Virus record (IMG/VR): IMGVR_UViG_3300027970_000021
Location: 50,061 to 70,060 of that record
Source: an uncultured virus (IMG/VR IMGVR_UViG_3300027970_000021)
Lineage: Duplodnaviria > Heunggongvirae > Uroviricota > Caudoviricetes
Length of the DNA stretch: 20,000 nucleotides
Strand: one strand, 5' to 3'
Positions 1,579 through 20,000 of this stretch are shown piece by piece. How positions within the stretch are numbered: the stretch's first letter is position 1; every line of letters begins with the position of its first letter. Under the pieces are notes generated by a model, which was given only the letters and a program-made list of their open reading frames with translations, was not told the origin of the DNA and searched no databases. Made by a program: the position numbers and the translations under genes.

Positions 1579-2346
1579 ATGCGAGTGCTTTGCATTGACT
1601 TTGAGACGACACACAAGGACCCGCTACAAGCCCGCCCGTGGGAGTTTGCCGCGTGCGTGGCTACTAACAATTCGTGGGCATTTGCACAGGAGGGGCAATA
1701 TACTGGGCGCATGTGGGCAGCTGATTACCCTGAGTTGTCGCCCGAGATCCAACGTGTCTGCAAGCTGCCGAGTGAGCGTAAGAACTTTGTCGGCTCTCCC
1801 AGCACCAAAGAAGTTCTTGCGAATCTGCACTCCCTGGCAGGGCAGGCAGATTACCTGATGGCTTATAACGCCGAGTACGACCGGACGGTGTGGGAGCAGG
1901 AATGCATCCGGCAGAAGGTGCCCTTCCCTACCACCCCCTGGCTGTGCGCCTACTCTGATGTCCCGTACCCTGACTATTACCGCTGCCGGCAGCTCTCGCA
2001 TCTGGCGCTTGACCATGGGATCAAGGTCGATCCCGAGGCACTGCATGGAGCCCTGGGAGATGTGAGACTGATGGGCCAGCTACTCAGCCGAGGTGGATAC
2101 ACCCTGGAAAAAATCCTGGAATATAAGCAGGAGCCCTGGGTGTACATGAAGGCGGTGTTCAATGCGTTTGGCCCTGGAGGCCAGGAGCTCAAAGAAGCGG
2201 CAAAGGCAGACGGCTACGGCTGGCAGCAGTGCCGCGGAGATACGGTTACGTTCATGAAGACTTGGGTTAAGCGAGTGAAGCTATCCAAGTTTGAGGAAGA
2301 GAAGGCTCGCACGCTGCCGTTCAAGCGTGAAACTTTGGAGGCCTGA
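1579..2346 (+). CDS. DEDDh (DnaQ-like) 3'-5' exonuclease
   Basis: ExoI IDFETT, ExoII AYNAEYD and ExoIII HGALGD motifs; GAGGG SD upstream. Confidence 0.9.
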   Translation: MRVLCIDFETTHKDPLQARPWEFAACVATNNSWAFAQEGQYTGRMWAADYPELSPEIQRVCKLPSERKNFVGSPSTKEVLANLHSLAGQADYLMAYNAEYDRTVWEQECIRQKVPFPTTPWLCAYSDVPYPDYYRCRQLSHLALDHGIKVDPEALHGALGDVRLMGQLLSRGGYTLEKILEYKQEPWVYMKAVFNAFGPGGQELKEAAKADGYGWQQCRGDTVTFMKTWVKRVKLSKFEEEKARTLPFKRETLEA

Positions 2347-2552
2347 TGCATACGAAAAATCTGAAACAACAACCTGCCCGCAAGGGGAATACTCCCCGCC
2401 GCAAACCGCTAACGGTCCGTATCGATCGCACGCTACACGACTTTGTGACCCGCTCAGCACATGCCAAGGGCGAGTGCGTGGCCGTGACGGTCTCGCGCAT
2501 CTTAAAGTCCTACCAGCGGAGCGTCGGCCGCGCGAAGGCACTGCACGCGTGA
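2346..2552 (+). CDS. Ribbon-helix-helix (CopG/Arc-like) DNA-binding protein (68 aa)
   Basis: KPLTVRID alternating strand followed by two helices (RTLHDFVTRSAHAKG, VAVTVSRILKSY). It overlaps the upstream stop (TGATG) and the downstream start (GTGA). Confidence 0.65.
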   Translation: MHTKNLKQQPARKGNTPRRKPLTVRIDRTLHDFVTRSAHAKGECVAVTVSRILKSYQRSVGRAKALHA

Positions 2553-4381
2553 TTGTCACCGACTCCAATTTTGAAGAGGTCGTAGGCCTGCTCTCCCGCA
2601 GCGGGGAGTACGGCCTGGACTGCGAAACCACGGGGCTTGATTTCAAGGCTCGCTTGTTTTCGATCATCATTGCGAGTCGTGAACAGTCCTATTATTTCAA
2701 TTTCCACGACTACGGGGACGGGACGCCGGTACTTCCGCGCTCACGTATCCGGGCAATGCAGCCCGTCTTCCTCGGGCAATCGATTTTTTACATTTCGAAT
2801 GCGAAGTTTGATCTCCGAATGCTGCGGCACGAAGGGCTTGAGGTAGAGTCCCACGTTTTCTGCACAAACGCACTGGGCCGGGTGCTTAAGAACAATTACT
2901 TCGGGCCGAAGGCCTACTCGCTAGAATCCTGGGCTCAGCGGCTTGGCGACGCCAAGGACGATGCCGTCATGGACTACGTGGTTGAGCACAAGCTCTACTC
3001 GGTTGAGAATATTCCAGGGAAGAAAAAAGAATTTAAGCGGATGCGCTTTTGGGAAGTCCCCGCGAGCATCATGATTCCCTACGGGGAGAAGGATGCTGAG
3101 CTTCACTTGAAGGTCGGATCGCATATTGCAGCGGGGATTAAGTCGCTGAACGCTCCCGGATCTCCGGGAAATATTCAACGGCTGGCTGAGAACGAGGCGC
3201 AGCTAACAAAGGTCTGCTTTGACATGGAGTGGGCAGGCATCCGCATTGATCGTGATTACGTAAGGAAGGCACAGGCCTATGAAGAAGAGCAAATTTCCCG
3301 CTTCACCGAACGTTTCCGTGAGTTATCGGGTGAGACGTTCCGGGACTCGTCGAGTTTTCTGGCCGGTGTCTTCAAGCAAGCCGGCTACACCGACTTGCCC
3401 ACAACCGACAAAGGAAACCCAAGCTTCACCGACGACAACCTCGACGATCTCGGAGGAGACCTTGCTCAGAGCGTGCGAGATATTCGCTTTCATGCCAAGC
3501 GAGTCGGAACTTATTACTCCTCTTTTTTGCACTACGCCGACGGAGAGGACCGAATCCACCCAGACATGAAGCAATCGGGCACTGAGACGGGACGCTTCAG
3601 CTACGCTGATCCGAACCTACAGAACGTGCCGAAAGAGGAGAACACCACACATGCTACCACCCCTTCTATCGTACGCTGTAGTTTCGTGCCTGATCCTGGT
3701 GACGTGTTTGTTATGGTGGATTACTCACAGCAGGAGTTTCGACTCATGCTCGACTACGCCGGAGAAACCAAGCTCATCGATGCCATCAACCAGGGGGCAG
3801 ACGTTCACCAAGCCACTGCAGATATGTTGGGCATCTCGCGACAATATGCGAAGACAGTTAACTTTGCGCTTCTCTACGGAGCAGGACCGGCAAAGATGGC
3901 TCGAATGCTTTCGATACCTGAGTTCGAGGCACGGGATCTCCGCGCGCTTTACTTCGGAAGGCTTCCTCGAGTGCAGCGCTTTATCACGCAAGTCATCGAT
4001 CGTGGTCGAGCCCGCGGTTACGTGGTTAATTGGGCGGGTAGGCGTTGCCACATCGATTCACCCGACTACGCCTACATTCTCCCCAATCACCTGATCCAGG
4101 GAGGAGGCGCGGATGTCATCAAGTTCGCCATGGTGCAGATCCACGCGCTCTTGCAGGAGAAAACCGGCGGGCGGTCGAGCATGCGGCTGCAGGTCCATGA
4201 TGAGGTGGTCTTCCAATTTAACCCTCGCGATCTCGAGCTAGTTCCAGAAATCCGTCGTATCATGGAGGGGATCTATCGTCCCTTCAACGGGATGAAACTT
4301 ACCACGTCGTGTGACCACTCCTGGAAATCCTGGGGGGCACCCGACAAAGAGAAGGGGCTCCCTGGGGATGAGACGGCCTGA
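2549..4381 (+). CDS. polA: Phage family A DNA polymerase (3'-5' exonuclease plus polymerase, 610 aa)
   Basis: Exonuclease motifs LDCETTG, NAKFD and YGEKDA; TETGRFSYADPNLQN; motif A DYSQQEFR; motif B RQYAKTVNFALLYG; motif C QVHDE. Likely start is GTG 2549, coupled to the RHH stop. No 5'-3' exonuclease domain. Confidence 0.95.
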   Translation: MIVTDSNFEEVVGLLSRSGEYGLDCETTGLDFKARLFSIIIASREQSYYFNFHDYGDGTPVLPRSRIRAMQPVFLGQSIFYISNAKFDLRMLRHEGLEVESHVFCTNALGRVLKNNYFGPKAYSLESWAQRLGDAKDDAVMDYVVEHKLYSVENIPGKKKEFKRMRFWEVPASIMIPYGEKDAELHLKVGSHIAAGIKSLNAPGSPGNIQRLAENEAQLTKVCFDMEWAGIRIDRDYVRKAQAYEEEQISRFTERFRELSGETFRDSSSFLAGVFKQAGYTDLPTTDKGNPSFTDDNLDDLGGDLAQSVRDIRFHAKRVGTYYSSFLHYADGEDRIHPDMKQSGTETGRFSYADPNLQNVPKEENTTHATTPSIVRCSFVPDPGDVFVMVDYSQQEFRLMLDYAGETKLIDAINQGADVHQATADMLGISRQYAKTVNFALLYGAGPAKMARMLSIPEFEARDLRALYFGRLPRVQRFITQVIDRGRARGYVVNWAGRRCHIDSPDYAYILPNHLIQGGGADVIKFAMVQIHALLQEKTGGRSSMRLQVHDEVVFQFNPRDLELVPEIRRIMEGIYRPFNGMKLTTSCDHSWKSWGAPDKEKGLPGDETA

Positions 4382-11923: not shown

Positions 11924-11958
11924 AAAAAGAAGGCCCGAGTATTTCTACCCAGGCCTCC
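11924..11958 (-). terminator. Rho-independent terminator of the major capsid gene
   Basis: GGAGGCCTGGGTA-GAAA-TACTCGGGCCTTC hairpin followed by TTTTT, about 20 nt after the capsid stop. Confidence 0.9.
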
Positions 11959-11980: not shown

Positions 11981-13030
11981 TTATACGGGGTTAACAATTG
12001 CGTAGATGAGCGTGCTCTTACCAGGAGCGGAGCAGAAGAGGGCCTGATCGCTCCAAAGGCGAAGCTCAAATCCGGCGCTCTCAGAGAGATGGCGGAAGAA
12101 CTCGTCTTTTTGGCCGGGAAGAGTGAAGGTCATGTCAGAACTACCGACACGGCTCCAGTCATCGAGGCTTAGGAGGTAAGAGTAGCCTTCTTTGACATAG
12201 ATCGAGGGTTCGATTTCAATGTCACCATTCTGTGAATGGAAGAGGATGCTCTTGCTACCGTTCTCAACTTTAGCAGCGCTGTATGACGAATCATACTTAC
12301 GGAGAGCCGCTTGGTCGGAAAGGAGTGAACTCCAGGTACGGGGGTTGACGTAGCAAATTACTTTGCTGTCAAGGCCCTTTTCTACTGCACGAGCAACGGC
12401 GTTGTTAAGCTTGGGGAAGCTAAGAGCGCCAGAGCTAGCAGAGTATTCGTTACCCTTGAAGAGGTTGTAGGTAGCGGTGTCGATGTTGAACAACGTACCA
12501 GTTGAGGTTAGGATCTTATGTACGCCAGGGAATTCGTTACCGTAAGCGCCTTTGTGCCAGATTACGTCGGTGGCAACTACGCCAGCGGCACCAGCAGAGG
12601 TCTTAAGGGTAACTACGCGAGTGTCCATGTTGACGTTCTTAACAGAGAATTCTCCGCGAGAAACGGCACCAGAGGCATCACGAATTTCGATAGGCATGTT
12701 CTCAGCACCGGCCCAGATACCAGGAGCCCACTCGGCAGTGGTGATCGTGATATCAGCAGCAGAGACGCTAGCAACGGTGGCGTAACCAACTTGACCGTAG
12801 AACATTTCGATCTCTAGCTTTTTGGCTAGTGAACGGAGCATGTTCGCTACAAGATACTTGGTGGCGTCCATGAAGGCTTGAGCCGTACCTTGTGAAGCAC
12901 GCGAAGCGGCAGAATAACCAAGGACAGAACGCATGAGGATAGGGTTCCCACGGATCTGAGCGTCCTTGATTACGCCAGCGACGGCGGGGTTAAGGTTGAA
13001 CGCATCTTCGTCAGAAGCGGCGAAAGTAAC
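11981..13030 (-). CDS. Major capsid protein, exon 3 (349 aa; spliced gene = join of 14639-14574, 13670-13533, 13030-11981; 417 aa)
   Basis: Downstream of portal and scaffold, followed by a strong terminator, and capsid-like in size and sequence (LAKKLEIEMFYG, GVHKIL...LFNID). The ATG at 13033 is the last 3 nt of intron 2. Confidence 0.85.
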   Translation of the reverse strand, partial: VTFAASDEDAFNLNPAVAGVIKDAQIRGNPILMRSVLGYSAASRASQGTAQAFMDATKYLVANMLRSLAKKLEIEMFYGQVGYATVASVSAADITITTAEWAPGIWAGAENMPIEIRDASGAVSRGEFSVKNVNMDTRVVTLKTSAGAAGVVATDVIWHKGAYGNEFPGVHKILTSTGTLFNIDTATYNLFKGNEYSASSGALSFPKLNNAVARAVEKGLDSKVICYVNPRTWSSLLSDQAALRKYDSSYSAAKVENGSKSILFHSQNGDIEIEPSIYVKEGYSYLLSLDDWSRVGSSDMTFTLPGQKDEFFRHLSESAGFELRLWSDQALFCSAPGKSTLIYAIVNPV

Positions 13031-13139
13031 CATTTTGTTATCGTAAGGGCTCTTTATCCCCTACTTCTTATAGTTTCCTATAAGTTCAGACTATCTTTTC
13101 AGAAGCCATGAGCTTCTGTCGGTGACTCGTGGGAATATT

Positions 13140-13460
13140 CTATTCCGCTTTCGCGGGTTCAATTCCTAGTCGTTGCGCGTGTGAAGAACTTTTAAGTCCA
13201 ACACTTCCGCTCTGATTGGCATATTCAGATAGATAGAAAAACTTCCACCCTAAGCTACTTTTTCTCCTGCCTGTATTTTTACAGATTTCCTCAACAGTAA
13301 AGTTTTCTTTTCCATAGCTTCGGATAGCATTAGAAATATGACGATTACGTTTTTCTACACAATGAGAATTAAAGCGACGAGAAACTGAGCCAGTTGTTTG
13401 ACCAACATACTCTTTTCCGTTCACATTATTCTTAATTTTGTAGATTATTCCGTATCTCAT
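13140..13460 (-). pseudogene. Intron-encoded GIY-YIG homing endonuclease, internally deleted (106 aa)
   Basis: GIIY...YVGQT...RR...H motif is present, but after FTVEEI the ORF jumps to CKNTGRRKSSLGWKFFY (NUMOD1/HTH-end-like). The helix with the catalytic Glu and the GYN motif are missing. The 3' end overlaps the intron core. Confidence 0.75.
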
Positions 13461-13466
13461 ATATCT

Positions 13467-13495
13467 ATCCTATCACATCTAACTTAGCTTTCCAA
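13467..13495 (-). promoter_or_regulatory. Possible sigma70 promoter for the GIY-YIG ORF inside intron 2
   Basis: TTGGAA (13495-13490), 17-nt spacer ending in TGA, TAGGAT (13472-13467), then 6 nt to the ATG at 13460. The AGGA could alternatively be an SD. Confidence 0.45.
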
Positions 13496-13532
13496 GTTTT
13501 TTCACCAATTTATTAGCACGGCATTAAACTTT

Positions 13533-13670
13533 ACCGTGCTCCATCCCCAAAATAACTGGCTGATGGTACAAATTGCCAGGCATCTTGGATTTCTCCATGA
13601 ATGCCACGCGATTTACTAGCTTTACGCCATCCGGAATAAGTTCTTTAAGCTTATTCGCATAAGTTTCTTT
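13533..13670 (-). CDS. Major capsid protein, exon 2 (46 aa; not in the ORF track)
   Basis: 138 nt between the two introns reading KETYANKLKELIPDGVKLVNRVAFMEKSKMPGNLYHQPVILGMEHG; in frame with exons 1 and 3 at the predicted splice sites. Confidence 0.88.
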
Positions 13671-14573
13671 CGAACTGTTTGCTCCAATTACTTGGAGTGT
13701 CGGACTATATCATCTGGCTTATTGCCAGCCGCGCGCTGTAAAATTCTGAATTGATAAACTTGCTCAATATATCTAAATTTATGTTGCATACTTTTAAGTC
13801 CAAGAACCGTGTCTCGGATTGTATGCCATATCTTTAAGGAGTCTTTTTCCGTAAAGGCTAGGAATGGATAGGTTTTAGATGTCCTTTTATCATTCATAAA
13901 CCTAACTTTGGGCTTTACTCCAAGCTGTGTTTCAAACCATTTGATTAATACATCATAATCTGAAATAGATTCGCTATATGTAAAGATTCTAAACCTTGCA
14001 CTCTTCGTGGTCTTTACTCCATGGATCATTTGGAATCCACTAGTCTCAACATATCCGTCATCCATAAGCCACACTGCTGCGGCAAACTCCGGATGCTTTA
14101 AAAAAGGAAGGATTTTTATAATCTCCTTTTTTCCATTGGGATATGTAAACTTTCTCCATGCTCTGAGACGCTTCCAACAAACTTGGAATTGTACAGATTT
14201 CCCTTTATGTCCTTGTCTAACTTTAACGTTTCTACCAGTTATGGATGAAACGATTTGAGCTTTCCAGGCAACATAATCGGCTTGGGAAGTTCCGTGGTCA
14301 ATCGAAAGACCGCCATAGACTGATCCCGCATTTTTTATATAGTGCAGACATCCGTCTCCCAAAACCATGGATAGGATAAGACTTCTTTTATCTTTATTAA
14401 GCATTTTATTCTCCAACTCGCTATGCGATCAGGATTATTCTAAATTTTTAGTCTCTGGACCTTGCTCTTCTAGAGAGCCTTGGCTGCTGATTGTCCCGTA
14501 GGATTTCCAGCAATTCACGCAGTTTTACAAGCTTTCGCTTGTCGGGGGTTTACCCGACCTCTTCAAATTAACT
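13671..14573 (-). mobile_element. Group I self-splicing intron 1 in the major capsid gene (903 nt, IA-like)
   Basis: P1: exon CCTCTTT pairs with GAAGAGG, with U-G at the splice site. P3 CTGCGTG/CGCGCGG; P4/P5 AATTGCTGGAAA-TCCTACGGGA-CAATCAGCAGCC; P6a GCTCT/AGAGC; P7 GACTA/TAGTC; P8 CTGGC/GCCAG; P9 CTCCAA-GTAA-TTGGAG; terminal G at 13671. Removal restores NGLF|KETY. Confidence 0.93.
13688..14404 (-). CDS. Intron-encoded double-motif LAGLIDADG homing endonuclease (238 aa)
   Basis: Motifs LILSMVLGDG and AAAVWLMDDG, plus HGTSQADYVAWK (LAGLIDADG_2, I-SceI-like pattern). A GGAG SD precedes the ATG at 14404. The stop lies in the P9 loop of the intron. Confidence 0.88.
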   Translation of the reverse strand: MLNKDKRSLILSMVLGDGCLHYIKNAGSVYGGLSIDHGTSQADYVAWKAQIVSSITGRNVKVRQGHKGKSVQFQVCWKRLRAWRKFTYPNGKKEIIKILPFLKHPEFAAAVWLMDDGYVETSGFQMIHGVKTTKSARFRIFTYSESISDYDVLIKWFETQLGVKPKVRFMNDKRTSKTYPFLAFTEKDSLKIWHTIRDTVLGLKSMQHKFRYIEQVYQFRILQRAAGNKPDDIVRHSK

Positions 14574-14639
14574 AAAGAGGCCGTTAAGGTTGCCAACCGT
14601 ATTGTTTGGCGTACCAAAAGTATTAACTGAAGTAGACAT
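14574..14639 (-). CDS. Major capsid protein, exon 1 (22 aa; not in the ORF track)
   Basis: AGGAG SD (14654-14650), then ATG 14639, reading MSTSVNTFGTPNNTVGNLNGLF. An in-frame TAA follows one codon into the intron. Confidence 0.88.
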
Positions 14640-14668
14640 TTGTTATTTTCTCCTATTTATTAAGTTTA

Positions 14669-15145
14669 TTAAGCGTCTTCTGCAACAACGTACTCTAGCT
14701 CTAGGCAGAGTTGACGGGTTCCAGAGGTTAGAGCTAGGCCAGAATCGACGTTTAGTACAATCTTATCCAAAGCACCGCCAGCGACAATGCCGCTTGCTGG
14801 AGCTGAGGGAAGAGTGCATGTAACTAGGTCGGCAGAGCTAAGGCACGATACCTTAGCAGAGACAACCTTTTCGACTTGTTCTTGGATGCGGACGAGAACT
14901 GAGAAAATCCCAGTTGCGTCGGCAGCACTTGCTAGCGTAGGAACGGTGTCGTCAGAATTTAGGGCACCTGAGGCGACCGTAATATTGTCGATACCTTCTA
15001 CAGCCAAGAACAGGAGCGAGGGCTCGTCGCTAGTAAGAACTTTAGCGGCGGGGGTAGCACTACCAACGATCTGGAAAGGGATGGATACCTTCTGGACCTT
15101 TAGTTGGCGGCTGCGAACTTGTGAATCTTTTGATTCGTATGCCAT
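14669..15145 (-). CDS. Putative head decoration / minor capsid protein (158 aa)
   Basis: Ala/Ser/Val-rich ORF with an AAGGA SD, located between scaffold and capsid genes. Function inferred from position only. Confidence 0.55.
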   Translation of the reverse strand: MAYESKDSQVRSRQLKVQKVSIPFQIVGSATPAAKVLTSDEPSLLFLAVEGIDNITVASGALNSDDTVPTLASAADATGIFSVLVRIQEQVEKVVSAKVSCLSSADLVTCTLPSAPASGIVAGGALDKIVLNVDSGLALTSGTRQLCLELEYVVAEDA

Positions 15146-15265: not shown

Positions 15266-15276
15266 TTAGTTGTTAA
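15266..15276 (-). promoter_or_regulatory. Candidate phage late-promoter motif TTAACAACTAA (copy 2)
   Basis: Exact repeat of 10452-10462; overlaps the scaffold stop codon and directly precedes the structured leader. Confidence 0.5.
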
Positions 15277-16271
15277 ATTTTGAAGAAATCTTTATAAGAA
15301 ACCTTCTTGTCTTCTTGATTTTCCTTTTGACCCGTTTTAGCCGTCTCCTTTACGGCACTTTTAAACGGCGTGGGGGGCATTTGGGCCTTTTTAGCCGCTA
15401 CAGTCTGTTTACGGATCTTATTAAGTGTATCTTTTCCGACAATGCCCTCAATAACTTCTAAAGGCATAGATCCAAACATAGCACGGGTATCGTTAATAAA
15501 CTCATCCCGTACCAAAGGAATTACTTCCTCAGGACTTACGTCGATATCGTTCTCAATAGCAAGCATCATCCAGTCAGCAATACGTTTAATAGTATACGGA
15601 GACTTAGGAATGTCTGATTTGGCTAGGGCCGCGTCAAGTTGTGAGTCGTAACGTTGGAAAGCCTGTTCTTCTAGCATTTCACGACGCTTAGCCTCACCAT
15701 CTTTCTTTTCTTTTTCACGTTCATCACGAAGAGCTTTAAGTTCTTGTTCAAGTTTTTCACGTTCTAGCTGTTCAGGTGACTTTTTGGCATTTTCAATTTC
15801 ACGTTCAATGACTTGTTGTGCAAGTTTCTTAATATCAATACCGAGAGAGGGGTCGCTTAGTACCTGCTCCGGATTATTACGAAGAACTTCTAGGAATTCA
15901 TTGACATCGCGCTCAAGTTTTGCGTGTTCTTGATATCTTTTATGCGAAGACTTTGACATTTGGAGCTGTTTACGCATATAATCCACAGATTTAGCGTCAT
16001 CAGGGATTTCAAATGGCAATTCTTCGTCATATTCAACACCATCTACCTTAATTTTAAGGGTTTTTAAGCGTTTGGCTTCGCTTTTAGTGAGCTTTTCTTT
16101 ACTTTCTAGCTTTTTAAGATCTTTTTCTTCGCTAGATGAAAGCGCTTGTTGCTCTTCACCACCAGGTTCGTTCTCTAGACCTTCATTTGAAAGCTCAGGA
16201 ACTTCAGTTTCCGATGGTTCTTGGCTATTTTGTGGTGCCGGGGCGGATTGTGTGGACATTTCGTCTGACAT
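15273..16271 (-). CDS. Capsid scaffolding protein (332 aa)
   Basis: Acidic disordered N-terminus, KIKVDGVEYDEE motif, long charged coiled coils and a basic C-terminus; AAGGAG SD; upstream of the capsid gene. Confidence 0.8.
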   Translation of the reverse strand: MSDEMSTQSAPAPQNSQEPSETEVPELSNEGLENEPGGEEQQALSSSEEKDLKKLESKEKLTKSEAKRLKTLKIKVDGVEYDEELPFEIPDDAKSVDYMRKQLQMSKSSHKRYQEHAKLERDVNEFLEVLRNNPEQVLSDPSLGIDIKKLAQQVIEREIENAKKSPEQLEREKLEQELKALRDEREKEKKDGEAKRREMLEEQAFQRYDSQLDAALAKSDIPKSPYTIKRIADWMMLAIENDIDVSPEEVIPLVRDEFINDTRAMFGSMPLEVIEGIVGKDTLNKIRKQTVAAKKAQMPPTPFKSAVKETAKTGQKENQEDKKVSYKDFFKI

Positions 16272-18603: not shown

Positions 18604-20000
18604 TTATTTTAAGTTGTTTAGACCGGCTTCTTGAAGCGCGGGATTTGGTAATAGTGATGGGTCTACTTTGGGAATATTAGGCATGTTTTCAGATCCACCT
18701 GGACCACTAACATTCTGACCAGCAACCTGAGGCCCACCAGCCGGAACTAATAGCTCATCAACGGATGTTGCGGGTTGGTTTGGTTGGGGAGCACCGCCAG
18801 GAGGCATTGATCCCGGAGGACCCATAGCCCCGGCAGGGGGTAGAGGCTGTTGGCCTAATAGGATAAGCAAGTCAGGATCAACAACACGCAGAGCATCAAG
18901 GTGGGCTTCTAGGTGATCCATTACAGTCTTAACAAGATCGACGTTCTTACGAAGGTCCGGGTCGGCTAATACAGCACGATGTTCTGAAATATGTAGACGG
19001 TGGTCGTCTGTTGGAGCAACAAGAACAACGTCACCATTCATGAGCCTTTCATTTTCAGACTTAATAAGAAGAAGTTCATTCACTTCTCCTTCAAACGTCA
19101 TATCAAGACGGCCAGTATTGATTACGTTAAAATATTGCTGAGGATTTTTAATTAGGCTCATCTGAGCAAGTTGCTCCGCCATCTGTACGCGACCAGCTAC
19201 GGTGCGCGATAAAGGATTTCCAACGTCAACAATAACGCGGTTTACGTCGGTAATATCATCGCCCGTAAATTCTTTTAGAAGAGGACGATTATTTTTACCA
19301 ACAAGCGCTACAATTTTAGGGGATTTCGCGTAGTCTTTAAGAATATTAATAAGACCAGTACCAACATCTTCAATCAGCTTTACATAGCTTTGTTGAAGGC
19401 CTGACATGAATTGTAAAGACATGCTCTGAACAAGCGCTAGAGCCGCACCAGACTCTAGACTGGCTTGAGGATTCCCACGGGACACAGAGTTAACTCCCGA
19501 AATGGTTTCGGCTGACTGAACTAACATGTCAACAAACTTAAAAATTTCGGCAGGAGTCTCTGTGAGATTCAGGGCCTCAGGTTTAATACTTGATTGGATA
19601 ATGTTCATACCACCTTCAAGCTGACCAGTAATGACATCGGAACCGTGAGGCATCCAGATGTTCTGTACGCCAAACGTGTTTTGGTTTGTCATGATGGTAC
19701 TAAACAATGAGTTAATACCTTCTTGAATTGGGAACACGTCAAACATTGAGGTATAAGCATAAGGAGTTCCAATAATCTCGGCAGCCGCAATACGAAAAAC
19801 GGGAACCGTGCGGTATGGGAGCTTCGTGTCTAATAGGATAATATCGTCAGCCAAGAACAGCATATACCGACCGTCAGGAAGGGCCTCGGACTTTTTATGG
19901 TAAAATTCATATACGGGGATATCGTCAGTTTCATCGTTAGACCAAAGCGCAAGACGGAAATTTGCGTATTGCGTTTTAGTTTGTAGTCCTTTGATCTTTT
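18604..20000 (-). CDS. Portal protein, C-terminal part (gene starts beyond the window)
   Basis: The frame is open from 19998 (DDIPVYEFYHKK...PDGRY) through QEGINSL...ETISGVNSVSRG...SGAALAL, resembling podovirus portals. It has a Pro/Gly/Gln-rich tail and lies upstream of scaffold and capsid. Confidence 0.85.
   Translation of the reverse strand, partial: KIKGLQTKTQYANFRLALWSNDETDDIPVYEFYHKKSEALPDGRYMLFLADDIILLDTKLPYRTVPVFRIAAAEIIGTPYAYTSMFDVFPIQEGINSLFSTIMTNQNTFGVQNIWMPHGSDVITGQLEGGMNIIQSSIKPEALNLTETPAEIFKFVDMLVQSAETISGVNSVSRGNPQASLESGAALALVQSMSLQFMSGLQQSYVKLIEDVGTGLINILKDYAKSPKIVALVGKNNRPLLKEFTGDDITDVNRVIVDVGNPLSRTVAGRVQMAEQLAQMSLIKNPQQYFNVINTGRLDMTFEGEVNELLLIKSENERLMNGDVVLVAPTDDHRLHISEHRAVLADPDLRKNVDLVKTVMDHLEAHLDALRVVDPDLLILLGQQPLPPAGAMGPPGSMPPGGAPQPNQPATSVDELLVPAGGPQVAGQNVSGPGGSENMPNIPKVDPSLLPNPALQEAGLNNLK

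Follow-up and report, generated by a model that had tools for sequence, protein, structure and literature searches.

The major capsid gene in a 20,000-nucleotide (nt) stretch of DNA from an uncultured tailed phage (the window; bases 50061-70060 of the 70,060-bp IMG/VR record IMGVR_UViG_3300027970_000021, which is rated 100% complete) was found on the minus strand as three exons separated by two inserts. Joined-frame analysis, alignment to uninterrupted homologs and comparison of RNA helices make it very probable that both inserts in this gene, the sole major capsid gene of its head module, are mobile group I introns. Each insert contains a homing-endonuclease open reading frame (ORF); these ORFs, which belong to two different families and occupy peripheral loops, were not part of a preliminary description made from the nucleotide sequence. 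Judged from these data, the most abundant virion protein of a widespread, uncultured lineage of aquatic phages would depend on ribozyme reactions. Current knowledge of how group I introns work is unchanged by this finding.

Exons and product of the capsid gene

Joining of the exons (66, 138, and 1050 nt, all in phase 0; Table 1) with a coordinate script yielded a single open frame of 417 amino acids (aa) plus a stop codon. The ORF upstream of the capsid gene stops at 14669. Within the inserts, in-frame TAA codons occur at 14570-14568, one codon past the 5' splice site of intron 1, and at 13526-13524, two codons past that of intron 2. An intein reading was rejected because these stops follow both 5' junctions. 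The G+C content of introns 1 and 2 (0.395 and 0.371) was lower than that of exon 3 (0.519) and of the window (0.482). The same two-intron arrangement was found in a contig from another record (L026), with 99.965% identity and 3 mismatches in 8670 nt. All coordinates in the preliminary description (exons, introns, Shine-Dalgarno sequence, start codon, and lengths), as well as its phase 0 junctions and open 417-aa frame, were reproduced on the sequence.

An ORF caller detects in this region a 350-aa ORF from ATG 13033. This ATG (13033-13031) belongs to intron 2, and its G is the last base of the intron. The preliminary description had predicted annotation as an N-truncated 350-aa protein, and a sequence exactly equal to the product of this ORF (P0001) was indeed present in the protein collection on 9 contigs. 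Gene callers have already recorded the capsid protein in this form, without its N-terminal arm. Truncation extends to relatives: 13 of the 120 closest, including the ORF from the window, were shorter than 390 aa, and 7 of the 14 sequences of the homolog set started at or near a mapped intron site.

A search with exon 3 retrieved 2237 relatives. Most of the best 120, from which lengths were taken, comprised 407-420 aa, about 60-70 aa more than the 350-aa ORF. As anticipated in the preliminary description for intronless homologs, the joined 417-aa protein aligned without a gap at either junction to all of the uninterrupted homologs compared (10/10), with 37-55 of its first 68 residues identical across the ten. 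The nearest of these, P0002 (420 aa), shared 55 of the 68 N-terminal residues. Exon 2 showed 83% identity to P0002 residues 24-69 (tblastn) and exon 3 showed 84% identity to the same protein; each of the three exons had an open, in-phase frame, with 81-84% identity to an uninterrupted homolog. Homologs that start at VTFAA, the beginning of exon 3, and lack similarity to exons 1 and 2, which had been named beforehand as evidence to the contrary, did not characterize the family. An exhaustive phmmer search with P0002 gave 1440 representative clusters at E ≤0.001, and in 135 of the 150 best representatives the alignment began no later than query residue 22. Of the remaining 15, six started at query residues 60, 66 (two), 71, 85, and 90, at or near mapped intron sites.

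The phenylalanine at the first junction (F23) was invariant in the ten-sequence alignment, and the first junction was therefore fixed to the base. At the second junction, a one-base shift would leave the protein unchanged; only the position given in Table 1 places a U before the splice site and a G at the end of the intron.

The protein encoded by exon 3 matched phrog_14242 (major head protein; E 7.1e-10), with profile positions 106-249 aligned to protein residues 52-200, an offset expected if about 54 N-terminal residues are missing. Of 69 family members, 14 matched Pfam SU10_MCP. P0002 was modeled with AlphaFold from a 69-sequence alignment, and the model had a predicted local distance difference test (pLDDT) score of 90.2 and a predicted template modeling (pTM) score of 0.88. 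Its best Foldseek match was the phage SU10 capsid (7z45_C, E 9.2e-11), and the top matches were capsids of SU10, SPO1, and cyanophage A-1(L) (E 9e-11 to 7e-10); encapsulins were also among the matches, of which 272 had E ≤0.001. In this model, the intron site at residues 23/24 falls in the N-terminal helix (16-27), and that at 69/70 in a loop between strands 57-65 and 89-96, which by its likeness to HK97 may be the E-loop. The gene order is portal, scaffold-like gene, capsid gene. The fold seen in the P0002 model and this position in the head module are both as expected of an HK97-fold capsid, and the interrupted gene is the only major capsid (HK97-fold) gene of the head module.

Group I features of the two inserts

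In intron 1, a search of 1.8 kb with the Rfam group I intron model RF00028 (gathering cut-off 50 bits) matched the 5' part with 43.1 bits (E 3.4e-9) and the 3' part with 21.5 bits; in intron 2, the match covered the 3' two-thirds and scored 30.0 bits (E 2.7e-5). When the whole 70-kb record was searched, these two introns gave the only matches (E 3.1e-11 and 2.5e-7). The covariance-model check proposed in the preliminary description thus yielded a match in each insert and none at the gathering cut-off. Scores were below the cut-off because each core is interrupted by an ORF of 0.3-0.7 kb, which the model penalizes. The cut-off was exceeded by an ORF-less homolog of intron 2 in contig L082 (50.3 bits) and by a further capsid intron, in L055 (77.6 bits). 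In this capsid family RF00028 was a poor detector: 2 of 18 intron-bearing loci reached the cut-off, and 3 of 19 mapped introns in 8 loci were matched at E ≤0.01. Both introns carry the U.G pair in P1 at the splice site and the terminal G that had been described for them, as expected for group I. Their assignment to group I was upheld by the RF00028 matches, by these P1 and terminal-G rules, and by covarying helices.

Helices were located by script, and those of intron 1 were compared with same-site homologs in L070 and L078. The script comparison was used instead of MAFFT, which misplaced the 5' core of L082 and, in another alignment, shifted P2 by one column. In intron 1, L070, and L078, respectively, the P1 guide covaries with the exon (CCUCUUU/GAAGAGG, GAUGUUU/GAACAUC, and AUUUUUU/AAAAAGU). 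P3, of which one strand precedes P4 and the other follows the ORF just before P8, differs on both sides and stays complementary (CUGCGUG/CGCGCGG, GAACGUG/CGCGUUC, and ACCUUGUG/CGCAAGGU); the observed stem was reached in 27, 1, and 1 of 500 shuffles. P2.1, P6a, P8, P9, and the hairpin at 14428-14418 form in all three introns from different sequences. P4 and P7 were invariant among the compared introns and uninformative on covariation. P1, P3, P6a, P8, and P9 of intron 1 were kept by compensatory change, as expected of group I helices.

The LAGLIDADG ORF of intron 1, which the ORF lister placed from TTG 14416 (242 aa), matched PF03161 over residues 12-192 (E 3.2e-12, 47.1 bits vs. a cut-off of 25). 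Both LAGLIDADG-type motifs are visible in its translation, in agreement with membership of this family. The ORF is bracketed by P3' and the small hairpin that follows P7. The final ~50 nt of the ORF also serve as P3', P8, J8/7, P7', and half of P9, with the stop codon located in the loop of P9. From its sequence the endonuclease is apparently intact, and intron 1 is probably still able to home.

Intron 2, in which GCACGGU pairs with GCCGUGC to form P1, has same-site homologs in L081 (847 nt, with a full 221-aa GIY-YIG ORF) and L082 (256 nt, no ORF). Four of the seven P8 pairs change among intron 2, L081, and L082 (CAGAAGC/GCUUCUG, CAACCUC/GAGGUUG, and CAAUCUC/GGGAUUG). In P7.1, an A-U pair is swapped for U-A (GGAAU/AUUCC vs. 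GGAUU/AAUCC), and the outermost P1 pair is G-C, G.U, or A-U, tracking a synonymous change in the exon. P1, P7.1, and P8 of intron 2 thus covary among the three homologs in the manner of group I helices. Subgroup IA introns carry hairpins P7.1 and P7.2 after the 5' strand of P7 and before P3'; in intron 2, this region holds two nested hairpins (13166-13132), and the corresponding region of intron 1 contains one small covarying hairpin and the ORF. P2, P7.1, and P7.2 are named as class features by Hausner et al. (2014; PMC3984707).

The ORF in the P5 loop of intron 2 matched PF01541 with 28.8 bits (cut-off 22.6), residues 4-61 aligning to profile positions 2-54 of 78; a complete GIY-YIG catalytic domain with a DNA-binding part was not found in it. 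BLASTP against the 221-aa ORF of L081 aligned residues 2-59 to 3-60 (74%) and residues 43-106 to 158-221. Its first 59 residues correspond to the GIY-YIG N-terminus of the L081 protein and its last 47 to the C-terminus, with about 115 internal residues lost, and its last third is read from the ribozyme core. On this alignment, the ORF is an in-frame deletion derivative of a 221-aa ORF such as that of L081. Intron 2 would then hold a dead endonuclease gene within a ribozyme that probably still works and, because about 115 codons are gone from the interior of its GIY-YIG gene, the intron probably cannot move without help in trans.

Table 1. Positions of the capsid gene, its introns with their ORFs and helices, and neighboring features in the window.
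Feature	Position	Strand	Basis or remark
Shine-Dalgarno-like AGGAG	14650..14654	minus	10 nt before real ATG; read from sequence
Capsid exon 1, ATG 14639, 22 codons, final T 14574	14574..14639	minus	translation; aligns to N-terminus of uninterrupted homologs
Intron 1, group I, 903 nt, terminal G 13671	13671..14573	minus	RF00028 and helix comparison
Capsid exon 2, 46 codons, final T 13533	13533..13670	minus	tblastn and colinear alignment
Intron 2, group I, 502 nt, terminal G 13031	13031..13532	minus	RF00028 and helix comparison
Capsid exon 3, 349 codons and stop	11981..13030	minus	translation; phrog_14242; P0002 similarity
LAGLIDADG ORF in intron 1, ATG 14404 after GGAG, 238 aa	13688..14404	minus	PF03161; phrog_11023
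Remnant GIY-YIG ORF in P5 loop of intron 2, 106 aa	13140..13460	minus	PF01541 and BLASTP
Intron 1 P1, U.G at splice site	14580-14574/14564-14558	minus	helix script
Intron 1 P2	14557-14553/14546-14542	minus	helix script
Intron 1 P2.1 GAAA hairpin	14540-14529	minus	helix script
Intron 1 P3	14522-14516/13735-13729	minus	helix script
Intron 1 P4	14513-14507/14490-14484	minus	helix script
Intron 1 P5	14503-14501/14496-14494	minus	helix script
Intron 1 P6/P6a	14484-14459	minus	helix script
Intron 1 P7	14453-14449/13707-13703	minus	helix script
Intron 1 small hairpin	14428-14418	minus	helix script
Intron 1 P8	13728-13714	minus	helix script
Intron 1 P9	13697-13682	minus	helix script
Intron 2 P1, U.G	13539-13533/13522-13516	minus	helix script
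Intron 2 P3	13508-13503/13124-13119	minus	helix script
Intron 2 P4, tentative	13495-13492/13215-13212	minus	helix script
Intron 2 P5, tentative	13488-13487/13220-13219	minus	helix script
Intron 2 8-bp stem closing ORF loop	13469-13462/13235-13228	minus	helix script
Intron 2 P6	about 13210-13177	minus	helix script
Intron 2 P7	13171-13167/13093-13089	minus	helix script
Intron 2 P7.1	13166-13162/13136-13132	minus	helix script
Intron 2 P7.2	13156-13145	minus	helix script
Intron 2 P8	13118-13100	minus	helix script
Intron 2 P9	13084-13067	minus	helix script
Intron 2 P9.1	13064-13043	minus	helix script
Terminator-like hairpin, 13 pairs (7 G-C), then T run	11929..11958	minus	22 nt past capsid stop
Free-standing endonuclease-like gene, 461 aa	10487-11872	minus	phrog_3339 8.3e-52; Pfam DUF7487
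Glu/Lys-rich scaffold-like ORF	15273-16271	minus	head module
Portal gene	18604-19863 and beyond	minus	head module

Proposed splicing and alternative readings

Gene anatomy, colinearity with homologs, covariance-model matches, helix covariation, and endonuclease families were observed directly; catalysis, splicing order, endonuclease activity, and homing of the two inserts we infer. In the proposed pathway, which is the textbook group I route, a late transcript would start at some point upstream of 14654 and end at the terminator near 11930, and each intron would fold into a group I core. An exogenous guanosine at P7 would attack the phosphate after the last U of the exon, held in P1 by its U.G wobble with the guide, and the freed 3'-OH of the exon would attack after the terminal G of the intron. 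Exon ends 14574 and 13670, and 13533 and 13030, would thereby be joined, and the ligated mRNA would encode the 417-aa capsid protein. On unspliced RNA, the stops one and two codons into the introns would halt ribosomes.

Several observations weigh against this interpretation. At the gathering threshold, Rfam gives no match in the window (43.1 and 30.0 bits vs. 50 bits), and the RF00028 alignment of intron 2 places the 5' side of P1-P5 inside the ORF, so that only its 3' half is usable. P4 and P5 of intron 2 are short and their register is tentative. In intron 1, P2 (276/500 and 266/500) and P5 (170/500) were no better than shuffles in some rows, and covariation was drawn from three sequences per intron. 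As to the product, the exon 3 protein alone matched no Pfam family, the capsid family profile found no solved structure by sequence, and the fold model is that of the 84%-identical homolog P0002 and not of the protein encoded in the window.

If one or both inserts were decayed and no longer spliced, the capsid gene would be dead and the phage defective. The deletion in the endonuclease gene of intron 2 and the two Rfam scores below the cut-off fit such decay, but all exons have remained open, in phase, and closely similar to their uninterrupted homolog. Moreover, in comparison with homologs the core strands P3, P7, J8/7, P8, and P9 are either retained or changed in a compensatory way, the deleted part of intron 2 is confined to the peripheral ORF loop, the record is rated complete, and L026 carries the same arrangement. 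Loss of splicing is, on these grounds, improbable.

A still smaller probability attaches to the reading that the capsid protein is the 350-aa product from ATG 13033, with exons 1 and 2 as leftovers. An ATG does exist there, and gene calling on 9 contigs has yielded this protein; the ATG is not preceded by a Shine-Dalgarno-like sequence, and the 135 of 150 family representatives mentioned above include the N-terminal ~70 residues, which form the N-terminal helix and one strand of the fold in the P0002 model. Leftover exons would, in addition, have had to stay open and conserved by chance. We give equally little credence to the proposal that the inserts are endonuclease cassettes and that the pieces are translated separately and assemble after translation. 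Splits without splicing do exist in phages, as in Aeromonas phage Aeh1, whose NrdA is split by an unspliced HNH-carrying insert according to the CB7 paper (PMC7344957). Here, exon 2 lacks both a start codon and a ribosome site, the first two pieces would measure only 22 and 46 aa, and group I core signals and covariation are present. That the arrangement is an assembly chimera, conceivable for a metagenome assembly, is the least probable reading of all, given the 3 mismatches in 8670 nt that separate it from L026 and the homologous introns at the same two sites elsewhere (L070 and L078; L081 and L082).

Insertion sites, known systems, and neighboring genes

Intron insertion in the family of this capsid gene was surveyed with a capsid profile in the best 80 of 131 tblastn-confirmed loci on related viral contigs. 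The capsid gene was uninterrupted on 62 of these 80 contigs and interrupted on 18. By local alignment and a search for junctions, 37 junctions were mapped, of which 35 remain when the duplicate L026 is left out. At 36 of the 37, the best-scoring join also had a T before the insert and a G at its end, with the script preferring such joins among equal scores; all junctions with a single best join (9/9) obeyed the rule. The exception was a 284-nt intron at site 55/56 of L072 (2811-3094), which ends in A and matched RF00028 with 37 bits.

In P0002 numbering, the 12 insertion sites were 23/24, 26/27, 36/37, 55/56, 56/57, 59/60, 61/62, 65/66, 69/70 in phase 0, 69/70 in phase 2, 79/80, and 88/89. Across the 80 contigs, every site falls within codons 23-89, and the other 330 codons were free of insertions. 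Capsid genes contained up to three group I introns. Micro-exons of 14-43 nt occurred among L045, L064, L067, L070, L071, L080, and L082, the shortest measuring 14, 18, 24, and 30 nt (L045, L082, and L064). Small introns at 59/60 and 65/66 showed a group I fold with 16 compensated pairs each, and 34 of the 35 introns fell in one single-linkage blastn cluster. The introns at 3160-4006 in L081 and 3144-4008 in L045 were 75% identical over 823 nt, including their GIY-YIG genes, and are inserted 2 nt apart at one codon boundary, one in phase 0 and the other in phase 2; by sequence, this pair looks like a recent shift of insertion site.

Confinement to the 5' end was not explained by highest nucleotide conservation, a candidate explanation that found no support: codons 51-80 scored 0.74, vs. 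0.76 for codons 121-140 and 0.77 for codons 161-180 (53 of the 62 uninterrupted loci; 9 without a clean full coding sequence (CDS) were left out). The first 90 codons of the capsid family might be regarded, tentatively and with some doubt, as a landing pad for group I introns. Because sites are confined, exons are tiny, related introns are shifted, and nucleotide conservation is at least as high in other stretches, the data suggest that related introns hop locally between sites and that some constraint restricts tolerated introns to the 5'-proximal part of the gene, whose expression is very high. This might be the case if, for example, folding of the ribozyme has to precede the arrival of ribosomes. 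The family provides a natural series in which the same intron occurs with a full, a deleted, or no endonuclease and related introns occur at neighboring sites; such a series could help in studying how introns are gained, decay, and move between sites.

Several introns in one phage gene reportedly also occur in Staphylococcus phage Twort, whose orf142 is said to contain three group I introns; host gene and intron number differ from those described here. Extra P7.1/P7.2 hairpins, GIY-YIG-type ORFs that loop out from the core, and in-frame stops shortly past the 5' splice site are features of the phage T4 introns in td, nrdB, and nrdD. They share these features with the capsid introns but lie in nucleotide-metabolism genes. 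These T4 introns are named in Pope et al. (2013; PMC3706429), where group I introns are also described in the capsid genes of lactococcal phage Tuc2009 and mycobacteriophage LittleE, splicing in the latter having been confirmed by N-terminal protein sequencing across the junction. As described there, LittleE resembles the present case in an insert of ~0.8 kb in the major capsid gene, an exon ending in U, an intron ending in G, a LAGLIDADG-like ORF, and a most abundant virion protein that needs splicing. It differs in having one intron, with its ORF on the opposite strand, whereas two introns of different families occur here, whose sense-strand ORFs extend into the ribozyme core, an arrangement predicted from sequence.

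Capsid genes split by group I introns are also described for the Delta and Zeta groups of crAss-like phages, where one capsid ORF is broken into five fragments (Yutin et al., 2021; PMC7886860). Those genomes are likewise metagenomic and carry several group I introns per capsid gene, which were recognized there via intron-type endonuclease domains. In contrast to the present case, capsid family and lineage are different; here, junctions were mapped to the base and RNA covariation gave support. In view of these descriptions for Tuc2009, LittleE, and crAss-like phages, the rarity implied by the preliminary description was overstated. The two-intron capsid gene is a further case of a known kind, and the hotspot is the added finding. 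A literature search on introns in capsid genes returned nothing on this particular capsid family. Jumbo gut phages are described (PMC12880540) as carrying an average of 18.5 group I introns per genome, with splicing seen in metatranscriptomes for 37 of 76 predicted introns.

Between the scaffold-like ORF and the capsid gene lies a 158-aa ORF on the minus strand. Directly after the capsid terminator is the 461-aa homing-endonuclease-like gene, preceded by a promoter-like site at 11908-11879 on the minus strand (12/12 match of sigma-70 type, with TG extension). Homologs of this gene (27-30% identity) were found just downstream of the capsid gene in the intron-bearing contigs L078, L056, L064, and L054, and partial matches in five uninterrupted contigs. 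Elsewhere in the window, a DNA polymerase exonuclease-like ORF (1579-2346, plus strand) and a DNA polymerase ORF (2291-4381, plus strand) overlap by 56 nt in different frames. The RF00028 search of the 70-kb record gave no match at this overlap; the pair could be two genes, a frameshift, or another interruption.

When phage records were searched by megablast with this region, five gave matches, all confined to 55-77 nt at the 3' end of intron 2, and tblastn of P0002 against 50,697 phage records gave one distant record only (26.6% identity). In view of these short or distant matches, no cultured relative is therefore known. The short matches to the 3' end of intron 2 included two Staphylococcus phage records, two metagenomic phage records, and Clostridioides phage CD1801 (MW512570.1), in which a 62-nt stretch in the region 2496-3279 was 95% identical. 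This region is a 784-nt unannotated gap flanked by two CDSs that share a strand and are annotated as "portal protein" (900 nt) and "hypothetical protein" (339 nt), and by its sequence the portal gene of CD1801 may be split by a related intron.

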